From an uncultured bacterium (GTDB lineage: Bacteria > Babelota > Babeliae > Babelales > Babelaceae), in NCBI GenBank assembly GCA_963819815.1, contig CAWFXL010000001.1, positions 992,001-1,056,000 on the forward strand: a stretch of DNA of 64,000 nt, given 5' to 3'. Under the pieces are notes generated by a model. That model was given only the letters and a program-made list of their open reading frames with translations. It searched no databases and was not told the DNA's origin. Position numbers and translations under genes: made by a program. Below are positions 1 to 52,414 of this stretch, piece by piece (positions within the stretch are counted from its first letter, which is position 1; every line of letters starts with the position of its first letter).

Positions 1-1105
1 CAGCTTTAGCTGGATTATACTGTATCTTATCCACATCATCACCCTCGTACTCATCAAACCAACTTTGCAGTTCTTTCAGTGCTGTTGGATCACTTTCATA
101 GGCTTTATACAAGGTTTGAAAAACTATATCCTCGTTAGAACGATAATCCTGTACAATCATAGCAATAGCTAATGCATCTTTTCTCGTCGTCTTGTCTTTT
201 AAAAGCTCGGTAATGCGCTCACCAATAGTCTTGCCTGGATGTGCTAGGTCAGCAGTTTTATCGACATCTTTCTCGAAATCTTTGACCCAACTTTCAAGGT
301 CTTCAAGCGCTGTTTTATCCTTTTCATAGACTGTATACAAGGTTTGAAATACTACATCCTTGTTCGAACGATGGCTCTGTACAAGCCTAGCAACAGCCAA
401 TGCTTCTTTTCTCAAAACCCGGTTAGCTAAAAGCTCTGTGATGCCCTCACCAATGGTTTTGCCTGGATGTGCTCCATCAGCAGTCTTGTCTACATCTTCC
501 TTGAACTCTTCGATCCAATTTTCAAGTTCCGCAAGTGCTGTTTGATCCAATTTACAGAGAGTGTACAAGGTTTGAAATACTTCAACCTTGTTCGAACGAT
601 CGCCCTGTACAAGCTTAGCAACTGCTAATTCCTGTTTTCTCGTCGCTTGGTAAGTTAAACGTTCTTTAATGCGCGCACCAATAGTCTTCCCTGGCGCATA
701 GTTCATAGCATCTACATCTTCCTCAAAACCATCAAGCCAACTTTTAAGTTCCTCAAGCGCCGTTGGATCGCTTTCATAGATTGTATACAAGGTTTGAAAT
801 ACTATATCCTCGTTGGTACGAGCACCCTGAACAAGCTTAGCAACTGCCAATGCTGGTTTTCTAAATTCTTTCTTTTGCAACCGAGCAGTAATGATCCCAC
901 CTACAGCATTTTTGTTGAAAGTAACTCTATCAACATCATAGGTAACTTTTTTGTACTGTTCTTCAAAGGCTTTATAGTGCTTTAGATCCTCAAGGGCATT
1001 TTTAAGACGTTCTTTGGAAGTCTCATCGAGGCTAGCCATGGCTTGAACCGATCCAAAGCCTGAAACCAAGAGGAGTGTTATAGTTACAATTCGTTTAAAT
1101 AGCAT
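1..1105 (-). CDS. Exported protein with ~76-aa tandem helical repeats (3' end runs off the window); paralog of 1362-4754
   Basis: Not in the ORF track. Manual translation from ATG 1105 (SD AAGGA upstream): MLFKRIVTITLLLVSGFGSVQA signal peptide, then repeats such as RSNKDVVFQTLYTVYEKDKTALEDLESWVKDFEKDVDKTADLAHPGKTIGERITELLKDKTTRKDALAIAMIVQDY. Frame stays open to the window edge. AAGGTTTGAA recurs at 111, 339, 567 and 789. Confidence 0.9.
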   Translation of the reverse strand, partial: MLFKRIVTITLLLVSGFGSVQAMASLDETSKERLKNALEDLKHYKAFEEQYKKVTYDVDRVTFNKNAVGGIITARLQKKEFRKPALAVAKLVQGARTNEDIVFQTLYTIYESDPTALEELKSWLDGFEEDVDAMNYAPGKTIGARIKERLTYQATRKQELAVAKLVQGDRSNKVEVFQTLYTLCKLDQTALAELENWIEEFKEDVDKTADGAHPGKTIGEGITELLANRVLRKEALAVARLVQSHRSNKDVVFQTLYTVYEKDKTALEDLESWVKDFEKDVDKTADLAHPGKTIGERITELLKDKTTRKDALAIAMIVQDYRSNEDIVFQTLYKAYESDPTALKELQSWFDEYEGDDVDKIQYNPAKA

Positions 1106-1321
1106 AGTTTTCCTTTACTGAGGTGTGAGCTTCAATCTTTTACGTACTACTCTAACATAGCACAAAATGCGCTACTCTTCAAAAGCCTTATTTTTATTGC
1201 TATTCCCAAAACGATTCCCTGGTATCTGCAGAATGACACTTTTTTACCATGAAACGCTACCTAGGATTTTTGGTTAAGGAGTAGTTACTATATTCATCAC
1301 CATACATAGATCCACTCATGA

Positions 1322-1348
1322 GAGAGCCTGTACGAGGTACAGGCTCTC
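1322..1348 (-). terminator. Stem-loop downstream of the 1130-aa gene
   Basis: GAGAGCCTGTAC-GAG-GTACAGGCTCTC, a perfect 12-bp stem 13 nt after the stop; no clear U-tract. Confidence 0.55.
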
Positions 1349-1361
1349 GTATAATACTTAG

Positions 1362-4300
1362 TTACGCTGCCGTAGGAAGAGCTTGCGGCTGGTCAGCACT
1401 ATTCTTTTTAAGATTTTTGTTGATCATATAATAATACACGAAACCTGCGCCAGCAACCACCGCTGCAACCCCAAGAGTTTTGCCCATTGACCAACTGGAT
1501 TGCTTAGGAGCATTAGGTTTGGCATTTGGCACCGGATTTGCCTGGGCTGTAGCAGTTATCTTAAAGAGATTTGATAGGTCATCTCTGCCGAGAGCTTCGA
1601 TCCTTTGGGCGATCGTCTCAGGAAGAGCAGGATCAAATCTAATCGTTGTAACATCAGCATCGACCTTACGTTGCCACTCCTTCAGATCATCAAACACTGA
1701 TTGGTCCTTCTCATAGGCCGCATAGAGGGTTCGCAATACCGATTCTTTATCAGAACGGTCCATCTGAACAATCTCAGCAACAGCTAATGCATCTTTTCTC
1801 GTCGCTGCTGCACTTAAACGCTCAGCAATACGACCACCAATAGTCATACCTGGATTTGTAGGATCATAGTCCGTCGTATCTACGTCCTCTTCGAATCCAT
1901 TGACCCAATTTTCCAGGTCTTTAAACACTGCTGTATCGTTTTCATAGGCTGTATAGAGGGTCTGAAGTACTATATTCTTATTCGAGCGATGATCCCAAAC
2001 AAGTCTAGCAAGGTCCAATGCATCTTTTCGTGTCGCCTTCACACGTAGCTTCTCGGTGATGCACTCACCAATAGTCTTGTTGGGACCTGCTTGATCAGCG
2101 ACCTTATCTACATCTTCCTTAAACGTATCAAGCCACCCTTCCAGGTCATCGAGTGCTGCCGAATCGCTCTCGTAAACTTTAAATAAGGTTTGCAATACTA
2201 CATGCTGATTTGTACGATCATGCTGAACAATTCTAGCAACAGCTAATGCTTCTTTCCTCGTCGCGGCCACGCTTAACCGTTCTGTAAGGCGGTCTCCGAT
2301 GGTCTTGCCTTCATGTGCTGGATCAGCAATCTGGTCTACATCGGGTTCAAACTCATCAACCCAAGTTTTCAGGTCTTCTACTGCAGTTGCGTCACTTTCA
2401 CAGGCTTTACACAAGGTTTGGAACACTCTCAGTTGGTTCGAACGATCCTCCTGTACTATCAGAGCAATAGCCAATGCACGTTTTCTCGTCCTGGCCGATC
2501 GCAACCCTTCTGTGATGCGTCTCCCAATGGTTTCTCCAGGTTTAGATGCATCATAATCGGTTGTATCTACATCTTCCTTATATACTTTGACCCATGATTC
2601 CAGATCCCCTAGTGCCGTCGGATCATTTTCACAAGCTGCACACAAGGCCTGGAATACTACATCCTTCTTCGAACGATCGTCCTGTACAAGCAGAGCAACA
2701 GCCAATGCGTCTGTTCTCGTCCCGTTTGTGCTTAAACGTTCGGTAATACGATCACCAATGGTCTTATCTCGTTTAGCCGAATTATAGCTCAGCTTATCTG
2801 CATTAGGATGGAACTGTTTAACCCAGCTTTTTAAATCACTTAATACAGCAGGGTCCTTTTCATACGCTCTATAGAGAGTTCTGAACACTACGCTCTTATC
2901 TGAACGATGCCGCTGTACAAGCTCAGCAACGGCTAAGGCCTCTGCTCTGTGTGTAGAGTTCAAGCCATCGGTAATAAGCTGTCCTAACGTCTTGTCCGGA
3001 TCATGTAAAAGGACGTCAACATCATAGGTACAAGTACTACATAGTTCTTCAAAAGCTTCATAGGCCGCTTGATCAACAAGAGCCCTCTTAAGAAGCTCAC
3101 CGAAAGTATTAGCATGAGTTCTGTAGCTCTCAATAGCGGGCAAATCCAAAATATCCTCTGGACCGACATTATCAATAGATCGTGCTATTGATAAGTTTGA
3201 ATCGGACTTCATCTTAATAAGATCTATATTCACTCTCTTATCTTTAATAAACTCCTTGAGTGCATCAATTTTGGTCGCATCTATACGGGCAGCTCTCACA
3301 CGTTTACGTAATTCATGTGCTTCAGGTGGATTTGAGCGGAAAGGCTGTAGTGCCGTTCGTAAGGTACTCAGCACACCTTCATGATGATCTGGATTATCAA
3401 GATACCCACCAATAGTACCGTCTGAAAACTTAACCGTATCGATATCTAATGAGTTATCAACAACATGCTGGACAAAAGCGGTAACTCGACTATCAACCTG
3501 ATCTGGTTCAGCAACCAAAGTTTTTCTGAATAGATCACGAACAACCTGGCCATTAAGCATCGCCATAACGTTGTCTTTGTACATAACATCACGACCACTC
3601 AGAGTGTTTACATAGTCAGCAAATGAATCATAATCATCGTAAGCAAAACTTGCAAGCGTAATAGGATTCTCTTGGAATAACAAAAGATGCTCCAGCTCCT
3701 GATGACGAGCCTCATCGCGCAAGCAATGGAGAAGTAAGTTTGTTTTGGCTGAATCACGAGTATTGTGCATCACCCAAAATCTCTTCAAATGAGCACTACC
3801 ATTATCTTCTAAAGGATGGAGTGTATGAAATGTTTTGAGTTCAGCACAGACAACTTTTGTGCGTGCTCTAGTAGCAGGATCACCAAGTTTCGACTTAAGA
3901 TAGTCGTCAAGCGGCATTCCTGTGTACCTTTCAAAAAATGCATCCCAAGAGCTTACGGGAAGATATGCATAGTCGGCAAGGAATGACTTTAGAAGTTTAA
4001 GAGGTACTTTGTCCTCTGTATACTCACAACAGCCAACCACTAAATAGGTGAAAGCCTTCTGTGCATATGAAGGCTGCTCTTCAAATCTCCAATTCTTTAC
4101 TGAAGCAGGGCTTACCCCCTGCAACAGATAGGGCGCACAATGAGCAAGAGTTATTTTTGCATCATCATGGGTAGTTCTTGGATCAAGATCGGTAGCTCCC
4201 TGATCTTCTAACAATCCGATAACCGATCCACCATCGGAATAGTTCAGGGTATCTATAGCAAGTTTTGTATCGGGGTACTGCGCAAAAAAGCTGGTAACAT

Positions 4301-49006: not shown

Positions 49007-50191
49007 TTACTTAGAGGAGGCTCCCCAGAGAGGCTTTGATGGCTTGAGCAGCATAAGGGACGCATGACCCTCAACGACAGTTCGCTCAATGGCGCCATTA
49101 ATACAGGTCATTAAAACATTCGTTATTTGGCCTGCTTCACGAGCTACCTCATACGGCTGCACCTGAGGGGCATTCCCGATAAGGATAAGCTCATCTCCCA
49201 CCTTTACGTCCGGAACATCTGACACATCAAAGGCTGCCAAATTCATACTGACGATGCCTGCAACAGGAACAATGTGGCCCTGAATAAGCGCTTTGCCTTT
49301 ATTTGAAAGAGCATGAGGATACCCATCCCAATAACCGATAGGCACCATGGCAATAGTGCTTGGCTTCGTGGTCGTAAAGGCAAGTTGATAGCCAACATTT
49401 GAGCCGGTTGGTAGCTGCTTTACTTGTATAATACGTGTTCGCCACTCAAGTATAGGAGACAGCGAAAAAGAAGGATCAACCTCTTTGACAAGTGCAATCT
49501 GCGAAGGATTTTTCCAGAGGCCATAGGCAGCAGCACCCACTCGCATAAATGAATACGTACGTTTTGGCTTAAGATGTAAGCTACTTGATGAAAGCGCATG
49601 GGTACAAGGAATCGCAATGCCTGCCGCTTCAAGATCATCCAGTACATCATCAAATTGTGCAAGTTGCCTATAACTATAATCATGATCTGCGTGACCTGTA
49701 TTGGAAAGATGCGTAAAGACCCCATACACTTTTAAAGAGGGCAGCTTCGCCATCTCATTAACAATTCTTACTGCCTGACTGGCAAGAATGCCTAGGCGTC
49801 CCATACCTGTATCGATTTTTACGTGAATAAAGGCCGTCTTACCCACCTTTTGTGCAGCAGCGGTAACGGCCTGTGCATCTTCCCATGAGCAAACTGCAAG
49901 ATGAAGCCCCTCTATAACCGCCTCTTCGAGATTCCCCTCAAGATAAGAAAGAACCACAATAGGCTTGGTTATCCCCTGAGTTCGTAGAAAAAGAGCTTCC
50001 TGTACCCCAGCAGTACAGAGCCAGCCAACTTCTGGGTGAGCTTGCGCAAGAGATGCTATTGGTAAGATCCCATGACCATAGGCATTGCTCTTAACGACAA
50101 TGGCAAGAGATGAATAGCCGCTAAGGTTAGCGATATGCGAAACATTTGAATTAAAAGCGGCTCGGCTCAGGGTCAGGGTCGTTCGTGTCAT
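49007..50191 (-). CDS. alr: Alanine racemase
   Basis: VVKSNAYGHG, HVKIDTGMGRLG, FTHL, R.G.A.YG, PIGYWDGY, G.VSMN. Confidence 0.93.
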   Translation of the reverse strand: MTRTTLTLSRAAFNSNVSHIANLSGYSSLAIVVKSNAYGHGILPIASLAQAHPEVGWLCTAGVQEALFLRTQGITKPIVVLSYLEGNLEEAVIEGLHLAVCSWEDAQAVTAAAQKVGKTAFIHVKIDTGMGRLGILASQAVRIVNEMAKLPSLKVYGVFTHLSNTGHADHDYSYRQLAQFDDVLDDLEAAGIAIPCTHALSSSSLHLKPKRTYSFMRVGAAAYGLWKNPSQIALVKEVDPSFSLSPILEWRTRIIQVKQLPTGSNVGYQLAFTTTKPSTIAMVPIGYWDGYPHALSNKGKALIQGHIVPVAGIVSMNLAAFDVSDVPDVKVGDELILIGNAPQVQPYEVAREAGQITNVLMTCINGAIERTVVEGHASLMLLKPSKPLWGASSK

Positions 50192-50236
50192 AGTTGGTTT
50201 GGCAGCCAAGGCTCATGCTTGGCTGCCTTATACTCG

Positions 50237-50854
50237 TTATGAAAGTGGTAAAACTTCTTCTTTTTGCTTTTGAACAGTCAACTTAAACTCGGTTGGTTGT
50301 ACTTCACCTTTGAGGGTACTCACCTCAACTGCAGTACTAAATACCTCGGCAAGTGTTGCTGATTGAGAAGTATAGAAGGTTCGGTCCTGCTGTTTAGCAT
50401 CTTGGACCTTCTTATCAGCTTTCTCTTCTTTCTTAAGCTCTATACGGGATGTTAGTTGAAACTCCACTGGGCTTATAAAAAACTCAATACGCCCATCTTT
50501 TAGCGTAATTGTTCCAAGCCAACCAGTATCTTTTTTTACGACTTTTACCTCATCTTTTGATAACCCGGTAAACCCTTTAAAGGTAATCGCTACTGACGAA
50601 TCATCCTCTTTAATCTCATGGGTAATCTTCGAAAGGTCTTCACGAGCTTTTTTAAAGGCCTCATTTACTTCTTTTGATGGCCCAAATGACTCAAAACGAC
50701 TTGCAAAGCCATCCATCATCCTTTGATGAGAAGCCATAATAGAATCTATCCATGATCCACTAAAGGGATCATCTATCAAGATATATCGTGCCTGTATCGG
50801 AACAGAAAGACATGATGTTACAGCAAATAATACTATAAGGGATTGTTTGTTCAT
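50237..50854 (-). CDS. Exported hypothetical protein, possibly divergent small heat-shock (alpha-crystallin) fold
   Basis: AAGGAG SD, ATG 50854, signal ending PIQA; DDPF...F N-region, IKEDDSSVAITF.G..GLSKDEVKV, C-terminal FKLTVQK...VLPL. Confidence 0.5.
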   Translation of the reverse strand: MNKQSLIVLFAVTSCLSVPIQARYILIDDPFSGSWIDSIMASHQRMMDGFASRFESFGPSKEVNEAFKKAREDLSKITHEIKEDDSSVAITFKGFTGLSKDEVKVVKKDTGWLGTITLKDGRIEFFISPVEFQLTSRIELKKEEKADKKVQDAKQQDRTFYTSQSATLAEVFSTAVEVSTLKGEVQPTEFKLTVQKQKEEVLPLS

Positions 50855-51049
50855 AATGAACTCCTTTATGTAATAGATGGTTGTACAAATCACTTCGGTA
50901 CTTAAAACCAGTATACACCCAAGTGAATGGTAAATGCAAGAGCATAGTATGAGCATAGATGCTCCTTAAAAACAGTTCACCCCTTGAGCCACGCTCCCAA
51001 GTAGTTTATACTCAAGGAGTTAAAGAACTTTGATAACCACGGATCGGCA

Positions 51050-52414
51050 ATGAAAAAACTACTCCTCAGTTCCCTGGTACTTATCTCCTTGGTTTTCATT
51101 GGAGGTGGCTTCAGCGTAGCCCAGGCAGCAGCCGTCGCTCCTAAACCTACGTTGCTCACAAAAGAGCTTCTTGGATATATTGAACCCCAAGAATACTTGC
51201 GCACTCCGCGCACAGCAAATCCATCACAGGCCGCAAGCAGCCCAGGAAACACACACCAAACTTCCCTTATCCAGCTTCCCGTGCTTGACCAAAATAAAGA
51301 ACCTGAGAAGAAGGGTAGCACAAAGAATAGTTCCGCTTACCATGCTTTGCGCAATGGAGTTATTCTCCTAAAGGCTCTGATAGATCCTTTAGATTATCGT
51401 AGCGTCGAAGGACTTGTAAAACTGTATGATAAAGAAGACCTATATAAAAAACTTTCCTATGAAGGTTCATGGCGAAATACCATTCGAAGCAAGCGTCATG
51501 GAAACTTTACCGATAGCCTCAGTCTTAAAGAGCTCGAAGTCCTCATAGCTGAAGAAAATAAGACTGGAGACCTTGCAGGAACAAATCTCCCTTGTGCCTA
51601 TTTTGAGTATGCAAATACGGATGAACCTACTGAAAGAGACTTTGAAGTGTTTAATGTAAGTGAAAACCTCAAAAAGATTAAAGCAAAACTTACTGCTGAT
51701 GAAGATTTTGCTGCTCTTATACTGGTGTATGTCGATACACACACGGCAAATAATCCCATCTTTGAAAAAAAACCTGTGAAGTGCACAGTAGAAGGTCCAG
51801 ACTGCACAGGGAGAGCGTTAAAAAAAACTCCCTGCTGTGGAAATTCGCTCTGTAATCCATGTTGGGGCACATCTCTTGCAGATAATCTGAGCGCCTGCCC
51901 CATGTGCAAATCTAGAAACCCAGGACCGCTCGAAGAAGAGATCACAAAGTTAGCAACAAATAAGCCACTAACTGGACAATTCGTTGCTCTTGTACTTGCC
52001 AAAGTACAGGACAAAAGGCAGTACTTTCTAATGGATTCAGCAAATGAAAAGCATCGTTTTACTACAAATAAGCCGATCAAAAAACTTCTTCAATACCTTG
52101 AAGATCCCAATGACCCCCAGGAAACAGATGCAGGCCTCTTGGAGCTTCCTCGCTTTATTCCTGATCCAAGGCGTGTAAAAGACGCCCGCATAGACGATCT
52201 CGTGGAAGCCTTTAAAGACTATAAAGACTCTTATAACCCAGTACCCCAAAAAGCTCCTGCAGCCCTTCAAAACCAGACCGATACATCATATTCCAAAGCA
52301 AAAGGCTTCATTGGTGGCGTCCTTGGAATTTGTGCCCTCTATGCCTGCCTTACGTATTACCAACGCTCTCAAAAACCAAACTCGCCGCAAGCAACCACTC
52401 CAACGGTACAGTGA
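51050..52414 (+). CDS. Exported protein with RING-finger insertion, Josephin-like pseudo-protease scaffold and C-terminal anchor
   Basis: Signal ending AQA; C-x6-C-x9-CCGNSLCNPCW-x10-CPMC; SAYHALRN ... GQFVALV...YFLMDS; tail GFIGGVLGICALYACLTYYQRSQKP. Confidence 0.75.
   Translation: MKKLLLSSLVLISLVFIGGGFSVAQAAAVAPKPTLLTKELLGYIEPQEYLRTPRTANPSQAASSPGNTHQTSLIQLPVLDQNKEPEKKGSTKNSSAYHALRNGVILLKALIDPLDYRSVEGLVKLYDKEDLYKKLSYEGSWRNTIRSKRHGNFTDSLSLKELEVLIAEENKTGDLAGTNLPCAYFEYANTDEPTERDFEVFNVSENLKKIKAKLTADEDFAALILVYVDTHTANNPIFEKKPVKCTVEGPDCTGRALKKTPCCGNSLCNPCWGTSLADNLSACPMCKSRNPGPLEEEITKLATNKPLTGQFVALVLAKVQDKRQYFLMDSANEKHRFTTNKPIKKLLQYLEDPNDPQETDAGLLELPRFIPDPRRVKDARIDDLVEAFKDYKDSYNPVPQKAPAALQNQTDTSYSKAKGFIGGVLGICALYACLTYYQRSQKPNSPQATTPTVQ

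Follow-up and report, generated by a model that had tools for sequence, protein, structure and literature searches.

The gene and its product

The 64,000 nucleotides analysed here (the window: contig CAWFXL010000001.1 of assembly GCA_963819815.1, positions 992,001 to 1,056,000) come from an uncultured intracellular bacterium of the Babelaceae (Dependentiae) and contain, at 51050..52414 on the + strand, an open reading frame (ORF) with an ATG start encoding a protein of 454 amino acids, P0001. This protein was predicted to be exported and membrane-held, and to consist of a catalytically dead protease-like fold carrying a nested RING finger. Its structure was modelled with AlphaFold2 from an alignment of 21 family members (A2); the mean predicted local distance difference test score (pLDDT) was 77.7, and the protease-like scaffold scored above 90.

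The product opens with a signal-peptide-like segment (residues 1-26; 51050..51127, upstream of 51128) made of a KK pair, a hydrophobic core and A-Q-A before A27, visible in the translation, in hydropathy (Kyte-Doolittle mean of 2.32 at residue 4) and as a helix at residues 3-23 of the model. An N-terminal hydrophobic segment of this kind was found by hydropathy in 34 of 39 family members. A linker follows (residues 27-70; 51128..51259), with pLDDT of 50-60 in parts and including a short insert absent from P0006-P0013 in the alignment. Residues 71-235 (51260..51754) form the first part of the dead protease fold, which holds Gln75 and Gln81, the nucleophile box and a helical lobe, is modelled at pLDDT above 90, and led in fold searches to clan-CA deubiquitinases. 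Its Ser95 (codon 51332-51334) lies inside the motif SSAYHALRN, at the start of helix 95-111.

The inserted RING finger (residues 236-295; 51755..51934), recognized from profile matches and the model, has a Cx6C first dyad, a CC-x4-C-x2-C-W core and a CPMC-K end. Eight of the 11 cysteines of P0001 lie in its 42-residue cluster, which runs from C245 (codon 51782-51784) to C286 (codon ending at 51907) with the spacing C245-x6-C252-x9-C262-C263-x4-C268-x2-C271-x11-C283-x2-C286. Residues 296-352 (51935..52105), delimited by alignment and model, form the remaining part of the dead protease fold, which contains Gln310 (codon 51977-51979) inside GQFVALV...YFLMDS, with Asp329 and Ser330 downstream (52034-52039), and a helix ending in LLQYLED. 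Beyond it the model shows a linker of mixed pLDDT with one helix at residues 379-395 (residues 353-418; 52106..52303), then a C-terminal membrane helix followed by QRSQK (residues 419-437; 52304..52360; Kyte-Doolittle mean of 1.91; helix 415-440 in the model), and the translation ends in a short, basic, Pro/Thr-rich tail with the stop codon (residues 438-454; 52361..52414). A C-terminal membrane segment was present in 16 of 39 family members, mostly in the subfamily of P0001. This layout predicts Sec export, a body outside the cytoplasm and a C-terminal anchor.

A preliminary description made from the sequence had placed the cysteine cluster, Ser95 and Gln310 at these same positions, which arithmetic on the translation reproduced in every case, and had called the protein exported and tail-anchored; both the signal-peptide-like N-terminus and the C-terminal membrane helix were indeed present by hydropathy and in the model.

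The RING finger and the fold around it

All eight cysteines of the cluster (C245, C252, C262, C263, C268, C271, C283 and C286) were invariant in the close homologs of P0001, and the insert as such was carried by 8 of the 21 aligned family members. In a sequence search of solved structures, P0001 alone reached the RING of RBBP6 with an E-value of 0.011. A profile built from six family RINGs retrieved 142 distinct solved sequences at E≤1, the best 60 of which were all RING fingers by name, including a tandem RNF4 construct (1.9e-7), RBBP6 (2yur, 3.8e-6), RNF125 (4.2e-6) and RNF141 (1.3e-5). In Pfam, zf-C3HC4_2 matched 8 of 21 members at E≤1, and the best RING E-values among family members were 1.9e-7 (zf-C3HC4_3) and 9.8e-6 (zf-RING_2). 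P0001 also keeps the Trp that follows its sixth Cys, the CP-x-C motif and a basic residue behind the last Cys. By its sequence, the cluster is best regarded as a genuine RING by ancestry, as first proposed: it has eight ligands, RING spacing and significant profile similarity to solved RING E3 ligases.

The finer label given to it, RBBP6/Mpe1-type, stood in part. The adjacent cysteine dyad and the C-C-x4-C-x2-C spacing agreed with it, and RBBP6 was among the best matches; it was not clearly the closest, since RNF4, RNF125, RNF141 and RNF8 scored similarly against the family profile. The RBBP6 RING (3ztg, 2yur) shares the P-C-C-G-N-S-x-C-x-x-C core, the adjacent Cys ligands, the all-Cys set and the final C-P-x-C, but its own first dyad is CxxC. 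The G-N-S triplet of this core was confined to P0001-P0004 within the family.

In the model the RING protrudes from an additional beta-hairpin (strands 238-245 and 294-301) that immediately precedes the strand of the catalytic His, at a site which hosts variable inserts in other family members and which lies between the nucleophile box and the His box. Residues 251-299 superimposed on the Prp19 U-box (Z 4.2, root-mean-square deviation (rmsd) 2.7, 48 residues; pLDDT there 49-70, in a model without zinc), and residues 232-298 on the RBBP6 RING (Z 3.9, likewise in a low-confidence region of the model).

The same six-RING profile found RINGs in 26 of 261 Dependentiae genomes at E≤1e-4, and among these 26 the nested form occurred only in the genome of the window (G000) and in G001. 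A second RING protein of the same subtype was encoded in G000 (locus L066, where it and an adjoining gene occupy 616-1860 (-) and 2130-3125 (-), at about 1.588-1.591 Mb of contig C1), with the motif T-P-C-C...C-x-x-C-W...C-P-x-C-R-K and a layout of signal-peptide-like start, RING, long Ser/Thr/Asp-rich low-complexity region and C-terminal membrane helix. The L066 RING could be the donor or a sibling of the nested RING. The gene adjoining it resembles a RING-less paralog with a similar C-terminal helix.

For the segments flanking the RING, the model showed a helix beginning at Ser95, a strand beginning at Gln310 and, behind the strand that comes next, Asp329; a papain-like Cys/His/Asp site would be expected to have this geometry. 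In an exhaustive VIA-align search, thiol proteases occupied 43 of the best 50 matches (best Z 5.4), led by the M48 tegument ubiquitin-specific protease (USP), OTUs, bacterial Josephins and VTD; BpJOS scored 4.7 and PaJOS 4.5. A model was also made of P0013, a compact, RING-less and catalytically intact relative of 315 amino acids, from a 39-sequence alignment (A3; pLDDT 84.9): papain-fold peptidases by title filled 50 of its best 50 matches, with Z-scores of 6.2 for M48 USP, 6.1 for BpJOS, 6.0 for VTD, and 5.6 for both OTU and PaJOS. CE-clan enzymes scored slightly lower (OtDUB 5.1, RickCE 4.8, CidB 4.8), and CE-clan structures covered only the His-Asp half of P0013 (range 120-265, Z 4.2-5.1). 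The weight of the structural evidence lies in the uniformity of the match list and in no single row of it. Searching the Protein Data Bank (PDB) with the A2 family profile gave nothing useful; ESM Atlas scores for P0010 did not exceed 0.81 and led to Peptidase_C39, C58 and ACTMAP-like entries, which is consistent with a papain fold and does not count as evidence for it. From the models, the flanks of P0001 can be assigned confidently to a papain-like thiol-protease fold nearest to deubiquitinases and ubiquitin-like (Ubl) proteases. The initial proposal of a RING lying inside such a fold was thus borne out, with the RING between its two boxes.

Distribution of the family and loss of the catalytic residues

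The 21-member family profile matched 64 of the 261 Dependentiae genomes (47 of the 189 good-quality ones). In many of these genomes several stretches matched, some of them being fragments of one ORF. Genomes of the same genus hold RING-less relatives, longer or shorter than P0001, with intact S-C-x-Y-H-A-L-R-N and G-H-W...Y...D-S boxes. The paralogs retaining Cys and His which the preliminary description had suggested looking for exist, and two of them are encoded in G000 itself: L010 712-2157 (481 aa, Cys/His/Asp intact) and L012 352-1854 (500 aa, Cys/His/Asn). Directly downstream of L010 lies a gene for a 439-aa protein with a signal-peptide-like start (L010 2319-3638 (+), C1 about 1.3217-1.3230 Mb). 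A divergent member, L062 1336-2793 (485 aa), aligned with the profile over the His box only (E 6e-5), its Cys box being recognized by eye. The remaining paralog, L013 10-2172 (-) (C1 about 52.1-54.3 kb, outside the window; 720 aa), is an apparent fusion of an inactivated protease part (E 1.1e-15 against the family profile) with an AAA+ ATPase, assigned from a Walker-A motif read by eye. It has Ser at the Cys column and Gln at the His column, as P0001 does, and also Asp-Pro instead of Asp-Ser.

In the A2 alignment, Q75, Q81, S94, Y97, H98, R101, N102 and G309 were nearly invariant, and Y325, D329 and S330 were invariant (D329 and S330 in 21 of 21 members). The two catalytic columns were not. 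At position 95, the nucleophile, Cys was found in 14 of 21 members and Ser in six (P0001-P0004, P0006 and P0007), the position being missing from the truncated P0005; at position 310 there was His in 18 of 21 and Gln in three (P0001-P0003). The replacement of Cys by Ser and of His by Gln, noticed initially in the single sequence, was accordingly confirmed against the family. Since Ser95 and Gln310 stand in place of the nucleophile Cys and the His, the protease of P0001 was considered dead.

A maximum-likelihood tree was computed with the RING columns removed and the truncated P0005 and P0009 left out, and was rooted on four distant members. All RING-bearing proteins fell in one clade (support 100/99), with P0008, which carries two RINGs and intact Cys and His, at its base; the Ser-bearing proteins formed a subclade (92/89), and the Gln-bearing ones its innermost group (90/91). 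P0007, with Ser and His and without a RING, was nested inside the RING clade, and was therefore interpreted as a case of secondary RING loss. The order read from the tree, whose root is the chosen outgroup, is gain of the RING by a still active enzyme, followed by replacement of Cys by Ser and, after that, of His by Gln. Each of these stages has surviving representatives: intact residues plus RING (P0008, P0009), Ser-His plus RING (P0004, P0006), and Ser-Gln plus RING (P0001 and its two closest homologs). P0008, a metagenome protein of 481 amino acids with two tandem RINGs at the same insertion site and both catalytic residues in place, is a candidate bifunctional protease-ligase on the grounds of its sequence.

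P0001 had four close homologs besides the query in a search of 5.8 billion proteins, and 16 homologs in total at E≤0.001 among 1.84 billion representatives; its orthologs were 88, 86 and 70% identical. A locus search with P0001 alone retrieved only the ortholog of G001, which stands in the same gene order, adjoining the SpoU methylase, ftsQ and ftsA. At the corresponding chromosomal position G003 has a Cys/His-intact, RING-less family member, and G002 has no family member. Between P0001 and the G001 ortholog the ratio of nonsynonymous to synonymous substitution rates (dN/dS; a single pair, with few changes per region) was 0.24 over the whole protein; by region it was 0.20 in the first lobe, 0.16 in the RING (the second-lowest of six regions), 0.10 in the second lobe and 0.66, the highest of the six, in the linker at residues 27-70. 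The dead protease scaffold is kept under purifying selection and shows no decay.

The genome of the window comprises 1.64 Mb in two contigs and is 88% complete. The neighbours of the P0001 gene are those for alanine racemase, a SpoU-type methylase, ftsQ (named from its position before ftsA, a Pfam scan having given no match), ftsA, ftsZ and alaS. Recent horizontal transfer of the gene was considered and rejected, its composition being like that of its surroundings (GC content of 0.424 at 50001-52000, within a range of 0.387-0.452 for the window). The upstream neighbour at 50237-50956 (-), listed with 239 amino acids, had no Pfam match, and its product shows an internal Met followed by a signal-peptide-like stretch; a protein like it, with the same C-terminal ending, adjoins alanine racemase in G002 (L054 2401-3018). 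Among sequencing runs, no RNA run was listed as containing the sequence, and three soil-metagenome DNA runs contained small shares of it only.

Proposed function, alternatives and comparison with known systems

The best explanation as a whole is that P0001 is an exported, membrane-held, dead Ulp/deubiquitinase-like protease whose nested RING acts on the host ubiquitin system; we put its probability at about 55%. On this account the protein would be exported by Sec and held in the membrane by its C-terminal helix. Its body belongs to a Dependentiae family of thiol proteases resembling deubiquitinases and Ubl proteases, with the order Gln, Cys, His, Asp, and in one subclade, on the rooted tree, a RING was inserted into the loop just before the strand of the catalytic His while Cys and His were still present. 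The nucleophile then became Ser and, in the small clade of P0001, the His became Gln, with the fold retained under selection. P0001 would now serve as a predicted RING-type E3 ligase, or as a module recruiting ubiquitin-conjugating (E2) enzymes, and its former protease cleft as a putative binding site for ubiquitin, a Ubl modifier or modified substrates, at the membrane that holds the protein. The series suggests a tag-removing enzyme turned into a ubiquitin-attaching one, and makes the family a compact natural experiment in how an enzyme that removes tags may come to write or to read them.

A more specific version is offered tentatively and is, in our estimate, doubtful: the protein would be a "reader-writer" ligase, whose dead cleft recognizes SUMO or ubiquitin on host proteins while a host E2, brought in by the nested RING, ubiquitinates just those targets. 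If so, it would be the pathogen's own counterpart of SUMO-targeted or chain-extending ubiquitin ligases, anchored at the bacterium-host interface, and the family would record the stepwise change from an eraser of Ubl marks to a writer. A dead fold that still binds ubiquitin or SUMO might also be of use as an affinity reagent.

Several results weigh against the proposed function. P0001 alone stayed under every Pfam RING cut-off (best 15.1 bits vs. 27), and the RING is modelled at pLDDT of 49-70, falling below 50 at residues 245-251. The main E2 contact of a RING is normally made by the loop of the first dyad (PMC12591485). P0001-P0004 have a Cx6C form of this dyad with Asp before the second Cys (Asp251, in an expanded loop, in P0001), where the RING-bearing relatives show CxxC with Ile, Thr or Val, so that the hydrophobic E2-contact residue is absent and E2 binding of P0001 may be altered or lost. 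Loss of that residue weakens canonical E2 binding and leaves the RING ancestry untouched. As to the fold, Foldseek gave no PDB match at E≤0.001 for the model of P0001 or of P0013, its weak rows including the RBBP6 RING, RavZ, NopD and Atg4B, and all structural Z-scores were below 8, a range that may reflect a common arrangement. As to location, two Omp85 genes and four secretin-domain genes of G000 exceeded Pfam cut-offs (G000:C1 1178086-1185459 and 22164-22663), three of the four secretin genes being clustered within 8 kb; LpxC was not found in this genome, which is 88% complete. Omp85 and secretins point to a cell that probably has an outer membrane, and a signal peptide with a stop-transfer helix in such a cell would leave the domain of P0001 in the periplasm. 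The periplasm is oxidising and without ubiquitin, and we know of no route by which P0001 could reach the host.

The first alternative, judged unlikely, is that both activities are gone and P0001 is a membrane-anchored decoy or trap: the dead fold would bind ubiquitin, SUMO or modified proteins, and the RING would be a structural zinc module or an additional binding surface without ubiquitin transfer. The Cx6C dyad and the Asp at the E2-contact residue, both found only in the nucleophile-less clade P0001-P0004, speak for it, as do the low confidence of the RING in the model and the sub-threshold Pfam scores; however, none of the eight zinc ligands has been lost, nor have the Trp, the CP-x-C motif or the basic residue, the RING has the second-lowest dN/dS in the protein, and atypical bacterial RINGs can be active, SneRING being an example (PMC12591485).

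The second alternative concerns the scaffold. The preliminary description had called it Josephin-like, and P0001 might be a member of the Josephin (MJD) family and not a permuted Ulp1-like protease. The Gln-Cys-His-Asp order and the shapes of the motifs fit a Josephin, BpJOS and PaJOS are among the tied best structural matches of P0013, and one family-like ORF of 381 amino acids in G155 (L059 631-1776 (+)) had a weak Pfam Josephin match at positions 11-147 (E 0.004, 16.4 bits, below the cut-off). Against this, Pfam Josephin (PF02099) matched none of 43 members scanned (P0001 at E≤10; 21 plus 22 further members at E≤1), exceeded its cut-off nowhere in 261 Dependentiae genomes and was absent from G000 at E≤0.01, whereas the L059 ORF scored higher with Peptidase_C48 (28.1 bits, over the cut-off, in the His-Asp part). 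This ORF could be a bridge between the Josephin and C48 assignments. A second ORF, in L029, came close to the Peptidase_C48 cut-off (20.2 vs. 20.7 bits), and P0001 itself had no C48 match in the Pfam scan. The only PDB match of the family profile below E 0.01 was the Ulp-type protease CidB (7fiu; E 0.0049, on the His-Asp box), and alignment with hhalign to four canonical Dependentiae C48 domains gave an E-value of 0.0015 in which only the His box was significant. The near-significant sequence links of the family lead only to the Ulp1/C48 type (CE clan), via the H-W...D-S block.

A circularly permuted Ulp1 (C48) homolog family has in fact been described from Babela massiliensis (Pagnier et al. 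2015, PMC4378268), in which HHpred aligned the N-terminal Cys block with the C-terminal Gln/Cys block of Ulp1 (Additional file 13), and the motifs of this family, compared by eye with alignments A2 and A3, are those of the P0001 family. The pattern of Gln, Cys, His and Asp/Asn-Ser seen in the preliminary description is real. Because the same two motif blocks occur in that file, the scaffold of P0001 was assigned to the published Babela family and not to Josephin. The Josephin label was not supported: it had no Pfam match in the members scanned, and BpJOS and PaJOS tie with M48 USP, VTD and OTU. The published HHpred analysis, which places the family in Ulp1 (PMC4378268), points the same way, and membership of the Josephin family was considered quite unlikely. 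In the second hhalign alignment the Gln/Cys blocks pair in permuted order, at an E-value of 0.71 over 10 columns only; circular permutation of the scaffold is treated here as published and plausible.

A third alternative, which we regard as improbable, gives P0001 a purely bacterial role in the periplasm, as an envelope protein anchored in the inner membrane whose Cys cluster binds metal or forms disulfides. It agrees with the signal peptide and stop-transfer helix in a cell with Omp85 and secretins. However, no function in the periplasm is known for RING fingers or for deubiquitinase/Ulp-like folds, the L066 protein of the same genome shares both the RING subtype and the layout of signal peptide and membrane helix, and signal peptides are the rule on eukaryote-like proteins of Dependentiae: in Chromulinavorax they were reported on 44% of proteins and on 78% of ankyrin proteins (PMC6561590). 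Only a type II secretion system was found in Babela according to its genome paper (PMC4378268). Anchoring of deubiquitinases to the bacterial or vacuolar surface is described as common in a 2026 review, which adds that cytosol-exposed bacteria may use simple secretion (PMC13720258). Exposure of P0001 to the host is inferred. The last alternative, that P0001 is still a hydrolase with Ser95 as its nucleophile, draws on the conservative nature of the Cys to Ser change, the retained Asp329 and the Ser-His-Asp sets of P0004, P0006 and P0007, and is barely credible because the general base His is Gln in P0001 and the same Ser/Gln pair recurs in L013 together with loss of Asp-Ser, as in a domain that has been inactivated.

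Zinc RING ligases are a rarity among bacteria, SnRING from Simkania being the latest addition named in the 2026 review (PMC13720258), and a literature search on ubiquitin-directed enzymes of Dependentiae found nothing beyond the genome papers of Babela and Chromulinavorax. The parts of P0001 are known; as far as these searches show, a RING nested in a deubiquitinase/Ulp-like fold, with surviving intermediates, is undescribed. The permuted Ulp1 family, described as unique to Babela (PMC4378268), is now seen in a quarter of the Dependentiae genomes sampled, several copies in each, which marks it as a major candidate family of effectors in this phylum, whose members are parasites of protists.

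The Babela family is among the closest known systems. It shares with P0001 the N-terminal G-S-S-C-G-Y-H-A-L-x-N block and the later H-W...D-S block, as well as signal peptides and the inactivation of some members (PMC4378268). The Babela proteins differ in their AAA ATPase fusion, and no RING inside the peptidase is mentioned in the paper's description of them (PMC4378268), whereas in P0001 a RING is nested, a membrane helix is present at the C-terminus, and the catalytic positions are occupied by Ser and Gln; the fusion of a protease fold with AAA+ apparently recurs in L013. The bacterial Josephins (BpJOS 9f5t and PaJOS 9g7g; bioRxiv 10.1101/2024.07.24.604956), M48 (2j7q) and VTD (8add; PMC9741609) are the best structural neighbours and share the order of Cys then His over 138-150 aligned residues, but with Z of only 6.0-6.2, rmsd of 4.1-4.7, 7-11% identity and no match at sequence level. 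Membrane-anchored bacterial deubiquitinases (ChlaDUB1/2, SnVTD and SnOTU; PMC13720258) resemble P0001 in presenting a ubiquitin-directed domain on a transmembrane tether at the pathogen-host interface; unlike it, they are active proteases without a RING, and their delivery, as reviewed there, relies on secretion systems that are known or, in the case of vacuolar bacteria, has been inferred. Among bacterial RING/U-box effectors, SneRING of Simkania negevensis (PMC12591485), like the RING of P0001, is a zinc RING of eukaryotic type, with atypical features around its first dyad, in an obligate intracellular bacterium of amoebae. It differs in that the RING is N-terminal, with a separate domain behind it, and works with UbcH5b and UBE2T (PMC12591485), whereas P0001 has its putative E3 RING nested inside another fold.

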